This document shows, one piece after another, positions 2,119 through 59,021 of a stretch of DNA of 64,000 nt; the stretch's first letter is position 1, and each line of letters begins with the position of its first letter. Source of the DNA: Candidatus Stammera capleta. Its GTDB lineage: Bacteria; Pseudomonadota; Gammaproteobacteria; Enterobacterales; Enterobacteriaceae. Under the pieces are notes generated by a model. It saw nothing but the letters and a program-made list of their open reading frames with translations, did not search any database and was not told the DNA's origin. Made by a program: the position numbers and the translations under genes. The stretch spans positions 63,426-127,425 of the forward strand of contig CP043983.1 of NCBI GenBank assembly GCA_015134395.1. Direction: 5' to 3'.

Positions 2119-2871
2119 ATGTATAAAGATTTAGGACAAAATTTTTTAATAAATAAAAAAATTATAAAAAAAATAATAAAATATATAAAACCAAAATCAA
2201 AACAAATATTTTTAGAAATAGGATGTGGGCATGGAGAATTAACAAAAGAAATAATAAAATATACAAATAATATAATAACTACAGAAATTGATTATAATTT
2301 ATATAAAAAAATAAAAAAAAAAATAAAAAAAATTAAAATATTAAACATTAATTTTTTAAATTTTAATTTCAAAAAATATTTTAAAAAAAAAATAAGAATA
2401 TTTGGAAATATACCATATTATATTACATATAAAATATTAATAAAATTAATTAAAAATTTTAATTTAATAAAAGATATACATATAATGTTACAAAAAGAAT
2501 TTGCATATAACTTAATAAAAAAAAAAGGAAATAAAAAATATTCTAAAATTACAGTATTAATAAACATATTTTTTAAAATTAAAATATTAATTCATATAAA
2601 AAAAAAATATTTTTTTCCAAAACCTAAAATAAACTCCATTTTTATAAAACTTAATCCAAATAAAATTAAATATAATTATAAAAATATAAAATATATTATT
2701 CATATTTTAAATAATGCATTTTTTAAAAAAAAAAAAAAAATAATTAATAACTTAAAAAAATTTATATCTATAAAAGAATTAAAAAAAATTAAAATAAACC
2801 CATTATTAAAATCTTATCAAGTATCAAAAAATAATTATTGTAAAATAATTAATTTTTTATTAAAAAAATAA
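2119..2871 (+). CDS. rsmA: 16S rRNA (adenine1518/1519-N6)-dimethyltransferase
   Basis: GQNFL...FLEIGCGHGELT SAM-binding motif, GNIPYYIT, and KsgA-like length (250 aa). Confidence 0.85.
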   Translation: MYKDLGQNFLINKKIIKKIIKYIKPKSKQIFLEIGCGHGELTKEIIKYTNNIITTEIDYNLYKKIKKKIKKIKILNINFLNFNFKKYFKKKIRIFGNIPYYITYKILIKLIKNFNLIKDIHIMLQKEFAYNLIKKKGNKKYSKITVLINIFFKIKILIHIKKKYFFPKPKINSIFIKLNPNKIKYNYKNIKYIIHILNNAFFKKKKKIINNLKKFISIKELKKIKINPLLKSYQVSKNNYCKIINFLLKK

Positions 2872-2873
2872 AA

Positions 2874-3131
2874 TTAATTTAAATTATTAATTAATTTATA
2901 TATTTTAGATTTATATCTAGAACATTTATTAAAATGTATAATTTTTTTAAAGGACAATTTATCTAAAATAGATTGTAATATTAAAAAATTTTTTAAAGCT
3001 AATTCTTTATTTTTATTTTTAATATTTAATTTAACTTTTTTAATATAAGTTTTTAACATAGATTTTTTATTAGAATTTATTTTATTCCTTAATTTATTTA
3101 TATATAATCTTTTAATAGAAGATTTTATCAT
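2874..3131 (-). CDS. rpsT: 30S ribosomal protein S20
   Basis: 85 aa basic protein aligned to E. coli S20 (..KKSMLKTYIKKV.., ..KKIIHFNK..R.KS). Confidence 0.85.
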   Translation of the reverse strand: MIKSSIKRLYINKLRNKINSNKKSMLKTYIKKVKLNIKNKNKELALKNFLILQSILDKLSFKKIIHFNKCSRYKSKIYKLINNLN

Positions 3132-3150
3132 TTTAATTACCTATATAAAA

Positions 3151-4824
<1,674 letters not shown>

Positions 4825-7827: not shown

Positions 7828-9030
7828 ATGAAAATTAAAAATAATAAATTTATTATATTAATATTTATAATATTAAATAATTTTAATTATATAAATGCAA
7901 AAAATATATATAAATATATAAATGTAAAATCATATATTTTAATAGATTATAATTCAAAAAAGATATTATCACAAAAAAATTATAATAAAAAATTACCACC
8001 AGCAAGTTTAACCAAAATAATGACTAGTTATATTAATTCAGATTTAATAAAAAAAAAAAAAATAAATAAAAATGATAAAATTAAAATAAATAAAAATTCT
8101 TGATTTAAAAATCCTATTTTTAAAAATTCATCATTAATGTTTTTAGAAAAAAAACAAATTGTAAATATAAATAATTTAAATAAAGGAATGATAATACAAT
8201 CTGGTAATGATGCTTCTGTAGCAATAGCTAATTATATTTCAGGTAATGAAAAAAATTTCATAAAATTAATGAATAAATATGTTAAAAAAATAAATTTAAA
8301 AAATACTAATTTTAAAAATTCACATGGATTAGATAGTAAAAATCAATATACTACATCTAAAGATATGGCAAAACTAAGTATTTTATTAATAAAAAATTTT
8401 CCAGAAACATATAAAATTTATAAAATAAAAAAATTTACATTTAATAAAATTAAACAAAAAAATAGAAATAATTTATTATGAAATAAATATTTTAATATAG
8501 ATGGTATAAAAACTGGACATACAGAAAAAGCTGGTTATAATTTAATAACATCAGCAAAAAAAAATAATACAAGATTAATATCAGTCATATTAGGAGCAAA
8601 ATCAATAAAAGAAAGAAACATTTATACAATAAAATTACTTAAATGAGGATTTAATAATTTTACTACAAAAAAAATAATAAATAAAAAAAAAATATTTAAA
8701 TATAAAAAAATATGACTTGGAGAAAATAATTTATTACCTATAGGTAATTATAATAATATATATATAACATACTATAATAAAAATAAAAAAAAAAACAAAA
8801 TAATTTATAAAATTTTTAAAACTATAAAAGCACCAATTAATAAATATCAAATAATAGGAAAAATAAATATAAATAAAAAAAGATTTGTATTTTTATTTTC
8901 TTTAAAAAAAATAAAAAAAGGAAATTATTTAAATATAATATTAGATTATATAAAATTAAATATAAAAAAATATATTTTTAAAATAAAAAAATATTTAAAA
9001 TTTTTAATAAATAATATATATGATATATAA
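7828..9030 (+). CDS. dacA: D-alanyl-D-alanine carboxypeptidase (PBP5/6 class)
   Basis: Signal-like N-terminus plus PPASLTKIMT (SxxK), QSGNDA (SxN) and KTGHT motifs. 400 aa. Sits after rodA as in E. coli (rlpA missing). Confidence 0.85.
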
Positions 9031-16698: not shown

Positions 16699-17058
16699 TT
16701 AATTATTTTTTTTAAATTTATTTATTTTTTTACATGTTTTAGCATTTGTTTTTGTACGTTGACCTCTAACTGGTAAATTTTTACGATGACGAATACCACG
16801 ATAAGTATTTAAATCCATTAATCTTTTAATATTTAACATATTTTCTCTTCTTAAATCTCCTTCTAAAATATAATTAGATATATTTTTTCTAATTAATTCT
16901 ATTTGTTTATTATCTAAATCTTTTACTTTTGTAAAATAATTAATTTTATTTAAATCACATATTAATTTAGCACGAGATTTACCAATACCATAAATAGAAG
17001 TTAAAGCAAATAAAATAAATTTATTATTAATAATATTTACTCCTAATATTCTAATCAC
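16699..17058 (-). CDS. rpsM: 30S ribosomal protein S13
   Basis: MIRILGVNI..ALTSIYGIGKSRA matches S13. GTG start is preceded by AAGAGGA. Confidence 0.93.
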   Translation of the reverse strand: MIRILGVNIINNKFILFALTSIYGIGKSRAKLICDLNKINYFTKVKDLDNKQIELIRKNISNYILEGDLRRENMLNIKRLMDLNTYRGIRHRKNLPVRGQRTKTNAKTCKKINKFKKNN

Positions 17059-17082
17059 TATATCCTCTTTATAATATAATTA

Positions 17083-47378: not shown

Positions 47379-47852
47379 ATAAAATTAAAATTATTAATTA
47401 AATAAAAATTATTAAATATTAATTAAATAAATAAAACATAAAATTAAAATAATAACTATACTATAATATATATTATATATATAAATTAAAATTTTAATAA
47501 AATTATAAATAAATATTAAATTAATAATATTAAATAAAATTTAAAGTTAAAAATTAAATTATTTATATATTTACTAAAATTATTTAATAAATTTTAATAT
47601 TTAATATATAAATTATAAATAAATATAATTAAAATTAATTAATTTATATTTATATTTAATATAAAATAAATATAAATATAATATTAATATAATTCTAAAT
47701 AAAAATATTTAAATAAAATATTTAGATAAATTTATTTAATAAATAAATTATAAAATAAATAAACTTAATAAAAATAAAATTTATTATATAATTTAATTTT
47801 AATTAATAAAATTTAATATTAAATATATAAATAAATATAATATAATAATATT

Positions 47853-53163: not shown

Positions 53164-53316
53164 AAATATATTCTTCAACTATAATATTAAATAAATTTCT
53201 ATATTTAATATCTCTAATATATAATAAATACATTTAAATAATCATTAATAAATAATATTTATAAATATATCTTTAATAAATAAATACCTTATATATTTTA
53301 ATTGAGGCATATTAAA

Positions 53317-54360
53317 ATGAATAAAGATATTTTAATAATGACAGAAGCTGTATCAAATAAAAAATCCTTACCAAAAGAAATAATATTTAAAGTATTAGAA
53401 AATGCATTAACTATAGTAATAAATAAAAAATATAAAAAAAAAATAGATATAAAAATAAATATAAATAGAAAAAATGGAAAATTTTATATATATAGAAGAT
53501 GAATTGTAGTAAAAAAAGTTAAAAAACCTAATATAGAAATAAATATTAATGAAGCCATTAATAAAAATAAAAAAATAAAAATTGGAGATTTTATAAAAAA
53601 TAAAATAAAAAAAATAAATTTTGATAGAATAACTACACAAAAAGCAAAAAAAATTATAATAAAAAAAATAAAAGAAGAAAAAAAAAAAATCATTTTAAAA
53701 AAAATAAAACAAAGAAAAGGACAAATTATTACAGGATTTATAAAAAAATTATATAAAAATTATTCAATAATAGATATAGGAAATGATATAGAAATAAAAT
53801 TATTAAAAAAAGATATGCTTTTAAATGAAAAATTAAAAATAGGAAAAAAAATCAAAGGAGTTATATATAATATAAAAAAATATAATAATGAATATGAAAT
53901 ATTAATTACTAGATCACAAATAATAATGATAAAAGAATTATTAAAAATAGAGATACCAGAAATAAAAAAAAAAATCATAAAAATAAAATCTATATCACGT
54001 AAACCAGGTTTAAGATCAAAAATAGCTGTAATAAGTAAAGATAAACGTATAGATGCTATAGGTGCATGTATTGGTATAAAAGGTTCTAGAATAAAAGCAA
54101 TATCTAATGAATTATCTGGAGAAAAAATAGATATAATTTTATGAAATAAAAATATTAAAAAATTCATAATTAATACTTTACTACCAATAATAATATATAA
54201 TATATCAATAAATTATAAAAAAAAAATTATAAATATAAGTATAGAAACAAAAAATTTAGCTCAAATTATAGGAAAAAATGGACAAAATATAAAATTAATA
54301 TCTAAATTAATTGGATGAGAAATAAATGTAATAAGTATAAAAAATATAAAAATAACTTAA
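53317..54360 (+). CDS. nusA: transcription termination/antitermination factor NusA (lacks the enterobacterial C-terminal acidic repeats)
   Basis: MNKDILIMTEAVSNKKSLPKEIIFKVLE parallels E. coli [28 protein letters not shown]. Also ..RIDAIGACIGIKGSRIKAIS.EL.GEKIDII.W.. and ..IGKNGQNIKLIS.L.GWEINV. 347 aa against 495 in E. coli. Confidence 0.93.
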
Positions 54361-54378
54361 ATAATTATTAATAAATAT

Positions 54379-56170
54379 ATGTTAATAAAAAAAAAAAATT
54401 ATAATATAAAAAATAATATAAATAAATTTAAAAAAAAAAATAAAATATTAAATAAAAAATACTATAAAAAAAAAATAAAAAAAAATATATTTAAAAAAAA
54501 AAAAAATATTAGATTTTTTAAAAATAAAATAAATAAAAATATTAAAAAAAATAAAATAAATAAAAATATTAAAAAAAAATAAAATAAATAAAAATATTAA
54601 AAAAAATAAAATAAATAAAAATATTAAAAAAAACAAAAACTTTATATTAAAATATAAAAATATATTAAAAAAATTATTTTTATTAAAAAAAAAAAAACAA
54701 TATATAAGAGCACCAATTATAACAATAATGGGACATGTAAATCATGGAAAAACATCATTAATTGATTGTATAAAAAATACTAAATTAGTAGATAAAGAAA
54801 AAGGAAATATAACTCAAAATATAAATGCATATTATATTAATAATAAATATGAAAAATTAACAATAATAGATACTCCAGGACATTCTATATTTTCAGATAT
54901 GAGAATAATTGGAATTAATATTACAGATATTATTATATTAATAATTGCAATAGATGATGGAATAATGAAAGAAACTAAAGAAATAATAAATTATTCAAAA
55001 AAATATAATATACCAATAATAATAGTTTTAAATAAAATAGATAAAAAAGAATATATTAATAATATAGAAAAAATTAAAAAAAAAATATATAAATATAATA
55101 TTATTAACAATAAATTAAATAAAAATAATATTTTTATAAAAATATCTACAAAATTAAAAATTGGTATAGATAAATTAATAAAAAATATATCATTAAAAAA
55201 AAAAAAACTAAAACTTAAAGTAAATTTAAATACTATAACATCAGGAATAATATTAGAATCTAAAAAAGATAAAAAAAGAGGAATATTAACATATTTAATA
55301 ATAAAGAAAGGAATATTAAAAACAAATGATATTATATTATGTAATAATAAATATGGAAAAATAAAAGCAATATTTAATGATATAAATAAAAAAATAAATT
55401 ATGCTTTACCATCAATGCCAGTAAAAATTTTAGGATTAAAATATATATCCCCTTCAGGAAATAAATTTACTATTATAAATAACATTAAAATAGTTAAAAA
55501 AATAATTGAGTATAAAAATAAAAATAAAAATAAAATAATAAAAAATAATAATAATAATTATAATATAAATTTTTTTAATAATAAAAAAAATAAATTAAAT
55601 ATAATAATAAAAACAAATTCTTATGGATCTATTAATACTATAGATAAAATAATTAAAAAAAATTTTAATAATATAAAAATAATATCTTCAAATATTGGAG
55701 ATATTAATAAAACAGATATAACATTAGCAAATATAAGTAAATCTGTAATAATAGCTTATAATGTAAAAATTGAAAACTCAATAAAAAAATATATATATAT
55801 ATATAAAAACAAAATATATTTTTTTGAAATAATACATAAAATATTTAATAAATTAAAAAAAATAATAGAAAAAAATAATATTAATAAATTAAATATAAAA
55901 ATAACAGGTAAAGCAATAATAAAAAATATATTTAAATTATCTAAATCAAAATATATAGCTGGATGTAAAATTATAAATGGTTATATTAAAAATAATAATA
56001 GTATAAAAATAATAAGAAATAATAAAATTATTTGTAATAGTAAAATAAAATCTTTAAAAAGATTTAAAAAACAAATAAATATAGCTAAAAAAAATACAGA
56101 ATGTGGTATTATTATAAAAAATTTTTCAAAAATAAAAATTGGAGATATAATAGAATCTATAAATAATTAA
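54379..56170 (+). CDS. infB: translation initiation factor IF-2, interrupted by a +1 frameshift in an A9 tract (54571-54579)
   Basis: The Lys/Asn-rich N-terminal ORF (frame 1, 54379-54582) and the GTPase/C-terminal ORF (frame 2; ..YIRAPIITIMGHVNHGKTSL.., DTPGH, NKID) are separated by one extra A. Total length is 3n+1. Confidence 0.85.
54523..54631 (+). repeat. 4 tandem 27-nt coding repeats (AATAAAATAAATAAAAATATTAAAAAA = NKINKNIKK), second copy 28 nt
   Basis: The T positions repeat at spacings of 27, 28 and 27 nt. A-runs between units are 8, 9, 8 and 8 long. Confidence 0.9.
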
Positions 56171-56182
56171 ATAAATATTAAT

Positions 56183-56545
56183 ATGTATAAATCAATTAAA
56201 AATAAAAAAATAAATAAAAAAATAAAAAAAAAAATTACACAAATAATAATAAAATATAATTATATAATAGGTAAAAAAAATATAATATGTATTAATTATT
56301 TATATATATCTAAAAATTATTCATATATAAAAATATATATAAATTTCTTAAATATTAAAAATATAAATATTATAAATAATAAAAAAAATAAATTACAAAA
56401 ATTAGAAAAATATATTAAAAATATTATAATAAAAATAAAATATTTTAAATATATAAAAAAAATATATTTTATATATGATAATTTTATATATAAAACAAAT
56501 AATTTATTTAAAAAAATTAAAAATATTAATAAATATATAAAATAA
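56183..56545 (+). CDS. rbfA: ribosome-binding factor A
   Basis: 120 aa directly after infB as in E. coli. Weak but positionally consistent motifs (..ISKNYSYIKIYINFLN.. vs ..SRDLAYAKVYVTFLN.., ..IYFIYDN.. vs ..TFFYDNS..). Confidence 0.65.
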   Translation: MYKSIKNKKINKKIKKKITQIIIKYNYIIGKKNIICINYLYISKNYSYIKIYINFLNIKNINIINNKKNKLQKLEKYIKNIIIKIKYFKYIKKIYFIYDNFIYKTNNLFKKIKNINKYIK

Positions 56546-56574
56546 AATAATTAAATATAATTAAAAGGATAAAA

Positions 56575-57402: not shown

Positions 57403-57996
57403 TTAATTTTCATATTTAAATATTTTTACCATAGCAGGTCTTAATAATCTATCATTCATAATATATCCATCTTGAAGAATAGATATAATAATATTATCTT
57501 TATTTTTATCTTTTGATTTTTCAATAATCATAGCTTGATGATAATCAGGATCAAATTTTATATTCACTTTATTTATTACTGAAATATTAAATTTTTTTAT
57601 AACTAATAAAAGATTTTTTAATGTTAAATTAATACCCTCATATATAACTTTTAAATTTAAATTTTTATTTTTTTTATTTTTTAAAGCATTTTTTAAATCA
57701 TCTATAATAGGTAAAATATTTATAGCAAATTTTTCTAAAGAATATTTATATATATTTTCAATATTTTTTTCATTACGTTTTCTAATATTTTCTAAATCAG
57801 CTTTTGAACGTAATTTTATATTATTTATATTTTTTTCTAAATTAAATATTTTTTTTTTTAATTTATTAATATATTTTTTTTTTTTTTTTAATTTTAAATT
57901 TATTTTTTTAAATTTATCTTTAAAATTATTAATATTATTTTTATCATTTAAATTATTTATATTTTTTTTTAAATTAACATTATTCTTTATATTCAT
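57403..57996 (-). CDS. grpE: nucleotide exchange factor GrpE
   Basis: ..LRSKADLENIRKR.. and the C-terminal ..DPDYHQAMI..,..GY..NDRLLRPAMV are typical GrpE. AAGGAG (58004-58009) lies 7 nt before ATG 57996, which is preferred over the track start at 58047. 197 aa. Confidence 0.9.
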   Translation of the reverse strand: MNIKNNVNLKKNINNLNDKNNINNFKDKFKKINLKLKKKKKYINKLKKKIFNLEKNINNIKLRSKADLENIRKRNEKNIENIYKYSLEKFAINILPIIDDLKNALKNKKNKNLNLKVIYEGINLTLKNLLLVIKKFNISVINKVNIKFDPDYHQAMIIEKSKDKNKDNIIISILQDGYIMNDRLLRPAMVKIFKYEN

Positions 57997-58179
57997 TAAT
58001 TTTCTCCTTAATAATAATAAATTAAAACTATAATAATTATCATACAATAAATTTAAATAATAAATTATTTTAAAAATAAAATTTAAATATAATTTTAAAT
58101 CTGATAAAATATAAATAAATAAAAATTAAATAATAAATTTACTAAAAATTATTTTAATTAATAAAATATAAATATATTA

Positions 58180-58635
58180 ATGAAAAAATATATTATAAAA
58201 AATAAAAAAGTTTATTATAATTATATAATAAAAAAAAAATTTACAGCTGGAATTTTATTAAAAGGATGAGAAGTTAAATCTATTAAAAAAAAAAATATAA
58301 ATATAGAAAATAGTTATGTTAAAATAGAAAAAAATAATAATATTTATATAATAGGTTTTAAAATAAAACCATTAATTAATAATATTAATATATTTAAAAA
58401 AAAAAATAGAAAAATAAAAATTTTATTAAAAAAAAAAGAAATAAATTATCTTTATAAAAAAAATAAAATTAAAGGATTTACTATAATAGTTATATCATTA
58501 ATATTAAAAAAACCATGATATAAAATAATTATAGGATTATCTAAAGGAAAAAAAAAATATAATAAAAAAAATTTTATATTAAATAAAGAATGAAAAAAAA
58601 AAAAAAATATTAATAAAAATATTGATTTATATTAA
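58180..58635 (+). CDS. smpB: SsrA-binding protein
   Basis: ..FTAGILLKG-W-EVKSIK.., ..RKIKILLKKKEI..L, ..GFTII..SL..K..W.K..IGL.KGKK parallel E. coli SmpB. Adjacent to ssrA. Confidence 0.9.
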
Positions 58636-58673
58636 ATATTAATTTATATTATATAATTAATTTTATTAATTTA

Positions 58674-59021
58674 GGGGCTGTTTGGATTTGACAAAATATA
58701 CAAATTTTAATGAGCATGTCGAGGAAACGGTAGGCCGCGTAAAAAACCGTAAATTAATCGCAAAAAATAATAGTTACGCATTAGCAGCTTAAAAACTGTT
58801 AAGCCATTTTTTATATTTATTTTATCTCTTTATTTATATAAAAAATGTTAATATAAAAGAGATATAATTATAGAAGTCTATATCTATAATAGAAATTTTA
58901 TTAGACTAATTGATTATTATTTTTTTTTATTTATATTAATCAATGAACTAAAAATAAAATAAACATGTAGTATCAAAAAAATACGTTATTTTGGACGCGG
59001 GTTCGAATCCCGCCAGCTCCA
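58674..59021 (+). ncRNA. ssrA: tmRNA (SsrA), tag reading frame 58760-58792 = AKNNSYALAA*
   Basis: 5' GGGGCTGTTTGGATTTGAC... and 3' ..GGACGCGGGTTCGAATCCCGCCAGCTCCA form the tRNA-Ala-like domain. GCAAAAAATAATAGTTACGCATTAGCAGCTTAA parallels the E. coli tag ANDENYALAA. Confidence 0.95.

Follow-up and report, generated by a model that had tools for sequence, protein, structure and literature searches.

Genes frameshifted in poly(A) tracts have been described in the insect symbionts Buchnera and Blochmannia, where 12–50% of the transcripts are corrected (Tamas et al. 2008, as summarised in PMC5009743). Blochmannia vafer contains eight of them, including dnaX, dnaG, and pth (PMC3017870). The gene reported here is infB, encoding translation initiation factor IF2, in a 64,000-nucleotide stretch of contig CP043983.1 (hereafter the window) from a Candidatus Stammera-like gammaproteobacterium; bacteria of this kind are pectinolytic foregut symbionts of Cassidinae leaf beetles. 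In the window, infB is divided between two reading frames by one additional adenine in a run of nine (A9). It shares with the Buchnera and Blochmannia genes a single insertion or deletion (indel) in a sense-strand A run of at least nine, an otherwise intact and important coding sequence, an AT-rich and vertically transmitted insect symbiont as its carrier, and an annotation that gives a truncated product. However, frame restoration in infB requires −1 or +2 nucleotides in a run that has just nine adenines. Some of the Blochmannia frameshifts are conserved between species, whereas that of infB is common to no relative, and the lesion is located in an apparently dispensable low-complexity leader and not in a catalytic region. 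If the lesion is real, it works like the documented poly(A) frameshifts; if it is not, it is an issue of annotation or of the consensus sequence.

At dnaX of Thermus thermophilus and at other A9/T9 sites, RNA polymerase realigns on nine A/T and produces a ladder of transcript lengths, some of which are in another frame (PMC5009743). Sites of the T. thermophilus dnaX type are conserved and make two products, whereas the A9 of infB is a lesion unique to its lineage, and its zero-frame product is a 67-residue low-complexity peptide. The interrupted tssM gene of Citrobacter rodentium resembles infB in having a poly(A) run at the break, and full-length TssM is reportedly made from slipped transcripts (PMC4256274). 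By contrast with infB, that phenomenon was reportedly shown experimentally, in a non-essential secretion gene of a free-living enteric pathogen. Programmed +1 frameshifting of the prfB type has in common with infB that, with a zero-frame stop codon in the A site (AAA UAA in infB), re-pairing of the P-site tRNA in the +1 frame is possible. However, infB is devoid of an upstream Shine–Dalgarno (SD)-like stimulator, of conservation, and of autoregulatory logic, and re-pairing on AAU would be imperfect unless the slip occurred one codon earlier in the run. A programmed frameshift of the prfB type was rejected because there is neither a stimulator, be it an SD-like motif or a downstream structure, nor conservation. 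The Escherichia coli infB isoforms IF2-alpha, -beta, and -gamma arise by internal initiation, and the shortened IF2 is functional, so the N-terminal region is not needed for the core function of the factor. These isoforms start in frame, at a canonical GUG or AUG well ahead of the G domain; by contrast, the frame of the IF2 body in the window has none before the P-loop.

Organization of the interrupted infB gene

The 5′ segment of infB starts with an ATG at position 54379, 19 nucleotides past the nusA stop codon, and continues in frame 1 through 67 Lys/Asn-rich codons to the TAA at 54580–54582. The body of the gene is in frame 2, whose last upstream stop is at 54557–54559 and which is open from 54560 to the stop codon ending at 56170, a length of 536 codons plus stop. 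The earliest ATG, GTG, or TTG of frame 2 is at 54728 and gives a product beginning with MGHVNHGKT. The coordinates agree with an initial annotation of the window, which had placed the end of the leader, the opening of the body frame, and its first possible start codon at these positions.

The frame changes within four exact copies of the 27-nucleotide unit AATAAAATAAATAAAAATATTAAAAAA, which start at 54523, 54550, 54578, and 54605, with spacings of 27, 28, and 27 nucleotides. Units 1 and 2 follow frame 1, units 3 and 4 follow frame 2, and all four encode NKINKNIKK; Tandem Repeats Finder (TRF) also calls arrays with periods of 27 and 55 at this site. The A runs of the array are A8 at 54544–54551, A9 at 54571–54579, A8 at 54599–54606, and A8 at 54626–54633. 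Both the switch between units 2 and 3 and the assignment of the extra base to the A9 run had been proposed before, and they are borne out by exact matching and by the run lengths, respectively. Deletion of one A in silico yields 1791 nucleotides encoding 596 residues plus a stop; a continuous IF2 had thus been correctly anticipated, at a length of about 597 residues that has to be amended to 596. The restored protein falls within the range of 558–660 residues of most relatives.

Stop maps of the three frames define the position of the lesion. Between 54379 and 54579, frame 1 contains no stops, whereas frames 2 and 3 contain eight and sixteen. Past 54580, frame 1 has seven stops by 54655, whereas frame 2 has none over its 536 codons. 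Frames 1 and 2 are jointly open solely in the 20 nucleotides from 54560 to 54579, which include the A9 run, and therefore infB carries exactly one lesion. The split of the gene is not a chance arrangement; a one-nucleotide event at the A9 tract is the sole lesion, and no damage is present beyond it, as both halves are stop-free. The gene thus has the structure of the poly(A)-frameshifted genes of symbionts, with a single indel in an A/T tract of about nine or more nucleotides of an otherwise intact open reading frame (ORF). Because frame 2 has stops up to 54557–54559, any correction, whether in the DNA, in the RNA, or on the ribosome, is confined to 54560–54579. Correction at the longer runs further upstream (A12, A11, A10, A9, and A14) is ruled out by the same stops. 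The region 54200–54900 consists nearly entirely of A and T, and the Lys codons of the IF2 body are 115 AAA and one AAG.

Table 1 Features of the infB locus and examples of long A runs in the window
Feature	Position	Strand	Basis and remarks
infB 5′ segment: ATG and 66 further codons, K/N-rich N-terminal extension, ending with TAA	54379..54582	+	Frame 1; resembles the N-terminus of P0003; no public protein annotation
Four tandem 27-nucleotide units for NKINKNIKK, differing only by the added A of unit 2	54523..54631	+	Exact matches; TRF periods 27 and 55
A9 tract with the extra A, site of the frame switch; A8 in the other units	54571..54579	+	Run lengths; stop maps
Sole stretch open in frames 1 and 2	54560..54579	+	Stop maps of three frames
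Frame-2 ORF: repeat units 3–4, linker, IF2 G domain, domain II, C-terminal domains	54560..56170	+	Pfam on the 480-residue part; structure matches
Frame-2 codons for YIRAPIITI, conserved start of the G domain, abutting ATG 54728	54701..54727	+	46 relatives; PDB alignments; tblastn with sister IF2 begins at 54701
Publicly annotated coding sequence, 480 residues, MGHVNHGKT start	54728..56170	+	P0001 (NCBI), 100% identical
nusA, immediately 5′ of infB; two TGA read through as Trp codons	53317..54360	+	Synteny with L007
rbfA, immediately 3′ of infB	56183..56545	+	ORF list; synteny; tblastn
Examples of long runs	2725–2740 (A16); 57874–57889 (T16 on +, sense A16 in grpE); 58593–58607 (A15 in smpB); 8049–8062 (A14)		

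IF2 of the window and of related symbionts

The identity of the gene as infB is supported by the GTP_EFTU G domain, the P-loop GHV[DN]HGKT, the IF-2 and domain II modules, and the nusA-infB-rbfA context. The 480-residue part (P0001) has the Pfam records PF00009, PF11987, and PF22042 (GTP_EFTU, IF-2, and EF-G_D2), and the frame-2 product matches solved IF2 G-domain structures with E = 1e-47. The IF2 body shares 51–60% identity with its counterparts in Candidatus Stammera capleta genomes (CP1447xx), and the gene order nusA-infB-rbfA is that of the sister genome L007 (CP144780.1).

The length of the segment that precedes the P-loop motif GHV[ND]HGKT was determined for 46 related IF2 proteins. All of them have at least 12 residues ahead of the motif, which include an RxPIxTI(M/L) segment. 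By contrast, the annotated 480-residue product of the window has one residue ahead of the motif and is the sole such case among the 47 proteins. Alignments with the IF2 G domains in the PDB (2lkc and 6o7k) start at RAPIITIMGHV, and frame 2 of the window still encodes YIRAPIITI right upstream of the ATG at 54728. Judged from this conservation, the entry of a functional product into frame 2 must be located upstream of about 54701, because the RxPIxTI segment is kept by all 46 relatives and is missing from the 480-residue product. The 480-residue annotation is most likely a by-product of the frameshift.

In most relatives, 79–174 residues of K/N-rich low-complexity sequence precede the motif. However, five related lineages have only 12–21 residues there, and in one of them, L003, infB begins right after nusA, which confirms the short IF2 at the level of DNA. 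Short N-termini as frameshift artefacts were rejected for P0037, because in L003 there is no room for a leader after nusA. Because five lineages naturally lack the extension and the short form of L003 is genuine, the long N-terminal extension is clearly expendable in the Stammera clade. The frame break described in the initial annotation is thus real, whereas its wording that an essential infB is split overstates the case, because the displaced part is the low-complexity K/N-rich extension.

Relatives' extensions often carry tandem peptide repeats that differ from lineage to lineage; NIFNKKNLKKK occurs eight times in P0014, and further repeats are found in P0006 and P0009. This observation concerns the N-termini of P0014, P0006, P0009, and P0007. 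A recognisable segment resembling the IF2 N-terminal domain is kept in P0002, P0011, P0024, and P0042. Replication slippage appears to be the main process by which the extension evolves. The frame-1 leader of the window resembles the N-terminus of P0003 beyond composition (z = 3.0; 1 of 300 shuffles reached the score), and the closest relative has only one similar NKINKNIKK-like peptide unit.

The frameshift is unique to the window among about 40 Stammera-like IF2 proteins, so that its persistence across strains or species is not seen in this set. The nearest relative is only 59–60% identical; the comparison with other strains suggested earlier is therefore one with relatives, and not with close strains. 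In the protein collection, no IF2 homolog exceeds 59% identity, so no A8 version is on record. Look-ups of the exact 480-residue IF2 and of RbfA for independent assemblies returned no encoding contigs, and a scan of the genome collection found only three divergent species representatives of Stammera. The 480-residue product is a single NCBI record in the cluster look-up, encoded on a contig of 281,294 bp, and the 67-residue leader has no entry. The preprint on Stammera comparative genomics and its supplement do not mention infB and report 0–13 predicted pseudogenes per related genome (10.1101/2023.12.12.571295).

Long A runs in coding sequences

The approximately 54 kb of coding DNA in the window contain 108 sense-strand A runs of at least nine, including that of infB: 44 A9, 32 A10, 17 A11, 7 A12, 4 A13, 1 A14, and 3 of 15–16 nucleotides. 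Runs of at least 11 account for 32 of them. The whole genome of B. vafer contains 153 A runs of at least nine (PMC3017870), and the density in the window is therefore about ten times higher (108 in 54 kb of coding DNA versus 153 in a whole genome). The A9 tract by itself is not unusual in this genome. It is the only run that breaks a frame; the other 107, up to A16, are in frame. About 68 other genes of the window are intact, and in the sister locus of L007 none of the other 21 complete genes called is split. Because the other runs in the window are in frame and the L007 genes are unsplit, this type of assembly is not generally homopolymer-noisy. By E. coli standards, with RNA polymerase slipping from about A9 and the ribosome sliding from A11, the density of A runs would imply either heavy phenotypic frameshifting or an unusually frame-faithful machinery.

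Sources of functional IF2

The explanation that is tentatively favoured, with somewhat less than even confidence, is that A9 is a real and recent lesion of one added A and that the frame is restored within the tract, through RNA polymerase slipping by −1 or +2 or through the ribosome slipping by +1. Two of its parts are inferences: the genome itself would carry A9, and the protein would be supplied by slippage. A lineage-specific 27-nucleotide tandem repeat would have recently expanded within the fast-evolving K/N-rich extension of IF2, and replication slippage would then have put one A into the A8 run that closes unit 2. As a result, the ATG-initiated leader in frame 1 and the IF2 body in frame 2 would have become one base out of register. 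Functional IF2 would come from a minority of decoding events that correct the frame within 54560–54579. In one possible route, slippage of RNA polymerase on the A9/T9 hybrid would generate transcripts with A8 (−1) or with A11 (+2, one extra Lys). In the other, tRNA-Lys would slip by +1 on the ribosome at AAA AAA AAA UAA, where re-pairing inside the run would be perfect and the zero-frame stop after the run could supply a pause. A slippery P-site codon followed by a zero-frame stop is present in the gene (AAA AAA AAA TAA, 54571–54582), and bacterial RNA polymerase slips on runs of nine A/T with the addition of up to six nucleotides (PMC5009743). IF2 is likely to be derived from frame-corrected events because no canonical start in frame 2 delivers a complete G domain.

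Several points weigh against such a correction. The change required, −1 or +2, is the disfavoured direction of slippage: in a transcriptome of Buchnera, homopolymeric runs had 151 of 157 insertions versus 16 of 57 deletions, so that slippage was mainly +1, and no reading frame was seen to be restored (PMC5574713). Ribosome sliding in E. coli is robust only from about A11 and weak at A9 and A10 (PMC4363877). For slippage of RNA polymerase as well as for sliding of the ribosome, A9 is near the lower limit of run length. No SD-like motif containing G was found for more than 50 nucleotides 5′ of the A9 run, and no RNA structure was found downstream (minimum free energy −4.1 kcal/mol, z = −0.63). 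In addition, infB holds eight more in-frame runs, from A9 to A14. With slippage of 10% per tract, about 43% of the infB transcripts would be faithful, and with 30% only 6%. Slippage at a level sufficient for rescue would thus wreck most infB transcripts, and the implied yield of correct IF2 is small. The absence of the frameshift from all of the other approximately 40 Stammera-like IF2 sequences retrieved gives no sign of age or maintenance. The earlier suggestion that slippage rescue is plausible is accordingly upheld as far as its precedent is concerned, given the corrected transcripts of Buchnera and Blochmannia, and weakened with respect to the direction of the slip and the length of the tract.

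A serious rival, although less likely, is that A9 is a consensus or assembly error, or one allele of an A8/A9 polymorphism within the host or within the polyploid cell, with the A8 copies supplying IF2. This would account for a difference of exactly one nucleotide in a homopolymer inside four otherwise perfect repeats, for its occurrence in a universally essential gene, and for its uniqueness among related infB genes. Both halves of infB are pristine and free of secondary decay, as is expected of an error or of a very young allele. Related Stammera genomes in public databases were obtained from PCR-based libraries of DNA pooled from one to three beetles, sequenced as Illumina 2x150 reads, assembled with the metagenome assembler MEGAHIT, and curated with the reads (10.1101/2023.12.12.571295); the window genome probably belongs to this set. 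However, an Illumina consensus of A9 is normally reliable, the remaining 107 coding runs are in frame, and the published pipeline used the reads to remove local assembly errors (10.1101/2023.12.12.571295). Furthermore, poly(A) frameshifts of essential genes have been documented as real in other symbionts (PMC3017870).

Another serious but rather improbable rival, in which A9 would be real, is initiation of a short-N IF2 from a non-canonical codon (ATA, ATT, or TTA) that frame 2 contains in the stretch from 54560 to about 54700. Ribosomes might reach such a codon by reinitiating once they have terminated at the TAA of 54580. The leader in frame 1 would in that case amount to a short upstream ORF heading to decay, and the genome would be part-way to the short-N IF2 of other lineages. 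Five lineages do have short segments before the P-loop motif, with infB directly after nusA in L003, and the PDB holds a 509-residue chain of E. coli IF2 whose N-terminus is a few residues ahead of RAPVVTIMGHV. Several ATA, ATT, and TTA codons occur in frame 2, including one ATA two nucleotides past the TAA, and codons of this type are rare alternative starts in NCBI tables 4 and 11. However, near-cognate initiation in E. coli typically reaches at most 1% of that at AUG, there is no SD-like motif across 54560–54700, and the frame-1 leader shows no decay. In the window, ATG, GTG, or TTG serves as the start of each gene checked in this respect, and none needs a non-canonical start; the apparent exceptions are the GTG of rpsM and the TTG of pnp, each with an SD motif. 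A search for ATT and ATA starts elsewhere in the window found none. An AGG, GGA, or GAG triplet, as in SD sequences, is located at −18 to −4 in 26 of 53 genes versus a background of 14%, and therefore SD-led initiation persists in this genome of 18% GC. A canonical internal start, as used for the E. coli isoforms, is ruled out because the first ATG, GTG, or TTG of frame 2 is one codon before the P-loop motif.

It is very improbable that functional IF2 is the 480-residue protein initiated at ATG 54728 (MGHVNHGKT…). The ATG is the first canonical start of frame 2, it is carried by the public annotation, and an AAGAG motif is located upstream of it, albeit about 15 nucleotides away. However, the product begins one residue before the P-loop and lacks RAPIITI. 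Each of the 46 relatives, even those with a naturally short N-terminus, has this segment, and the alignments with solved IF2 G domains include it. In translational GTPases, the RAPIITI-type segment forms the first beta-strand of the G-domain sheet, and the YIRAPIITI codons upstream of the ATG are perfectly conserved. The three alternatives listed in the initial annotation were well chosen, and the truncated IF2 from 54728 is the one among them that the loss of this segment makes unlikely. That infB is a true pseudogene and initiation proceeds without a symbiont-encoded IF2 is scarcely credible, since, although the frameshift is formally there and related genomes carry predicted pseudogenes (0–13 each), the 536-codon body is stop-free where off-frames have a stop every 4–8 codons, the G-domain motifs are all intact, all relatives retrieved keep infB, and IF2 is, to our knowledge, universal in bacteria.

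Genomic context

The window DNA has a GC content of 18%. In nusA (53302–54360), two in-frame TGA codons are read through where Trp is conserved, and TGA is therefore assigned to Trp, in agreement with genetic code 4. This code is already known in Stammera, and the genomes of the preprint are annotated with it (10.1101/2023.12.12.571295). Because code 4 applies, ORF lists made under table 11 fragment genes in the window. A C-terminal extension of NusA (…SVFTLEKFANFSIPDLKKIDNNIDSQKARNLIMTARNICWF) is kept in the L003 lineage (L003 about 2700–2960 compared with 54200–54360 of the window) and absent from NusA of the window (352 residues) and of L007 (342 residues).

Relative to the syntenic block of CP144780.1, the window is without mreC, the adjacent 160-residue mreD-like gene, and truB. 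The comparison involved positions 47385–47852 and 56545–56551 of the window and 2143–3449 and 12129–12839 of L007, and tblastn searches with the three genes had no matches across the whole window. The genes mreB (92% identity), mrdA, and rodA are present. The GTG start of rpsM (17058–17079) and the TTG start of pnp (about 62580), both on the minus strand, each follow a GAGG or AAGGA motif. The genes for SmpB and tmRNA (tag AKNNSYALAA) are adjacent at 58165–59021, and both are retained; ribosomes that stall on the products of slipped transcripts would be cleared by trans-translation.

Implications

The public annotation of a 480-residue IF2 almost certainly does not describe the real product and deserves a flag. 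If the frameshift is real, IF2 joins the core information-processing genes that are kept in a frameshifted state in the tiny genomes of symbionts, such as dnaX, dnaG, and pth in Blochmannia. With about two coding A runs of at least nine per kb, and runs of up to A16, the genome raises the question of how its RNA polymerase and ribosome hold the reading frame, and whether the infidelity that would rescue infB would also tax every other gene. It is possible, if doubtful, that A9 is fixed and that the only IF2 of this symbiont arises through low-frequency frame correction or near-cognate internal initiation. Its output would then be set by the infidelity of the polymerase or the ribosome, and the locus would be a snapshot of the loss of the extension on the way to the short-N IF2 of sister lineages. 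The case suggests a route by which some Stammera lineages may have lost the N-terminal extension of IF2.

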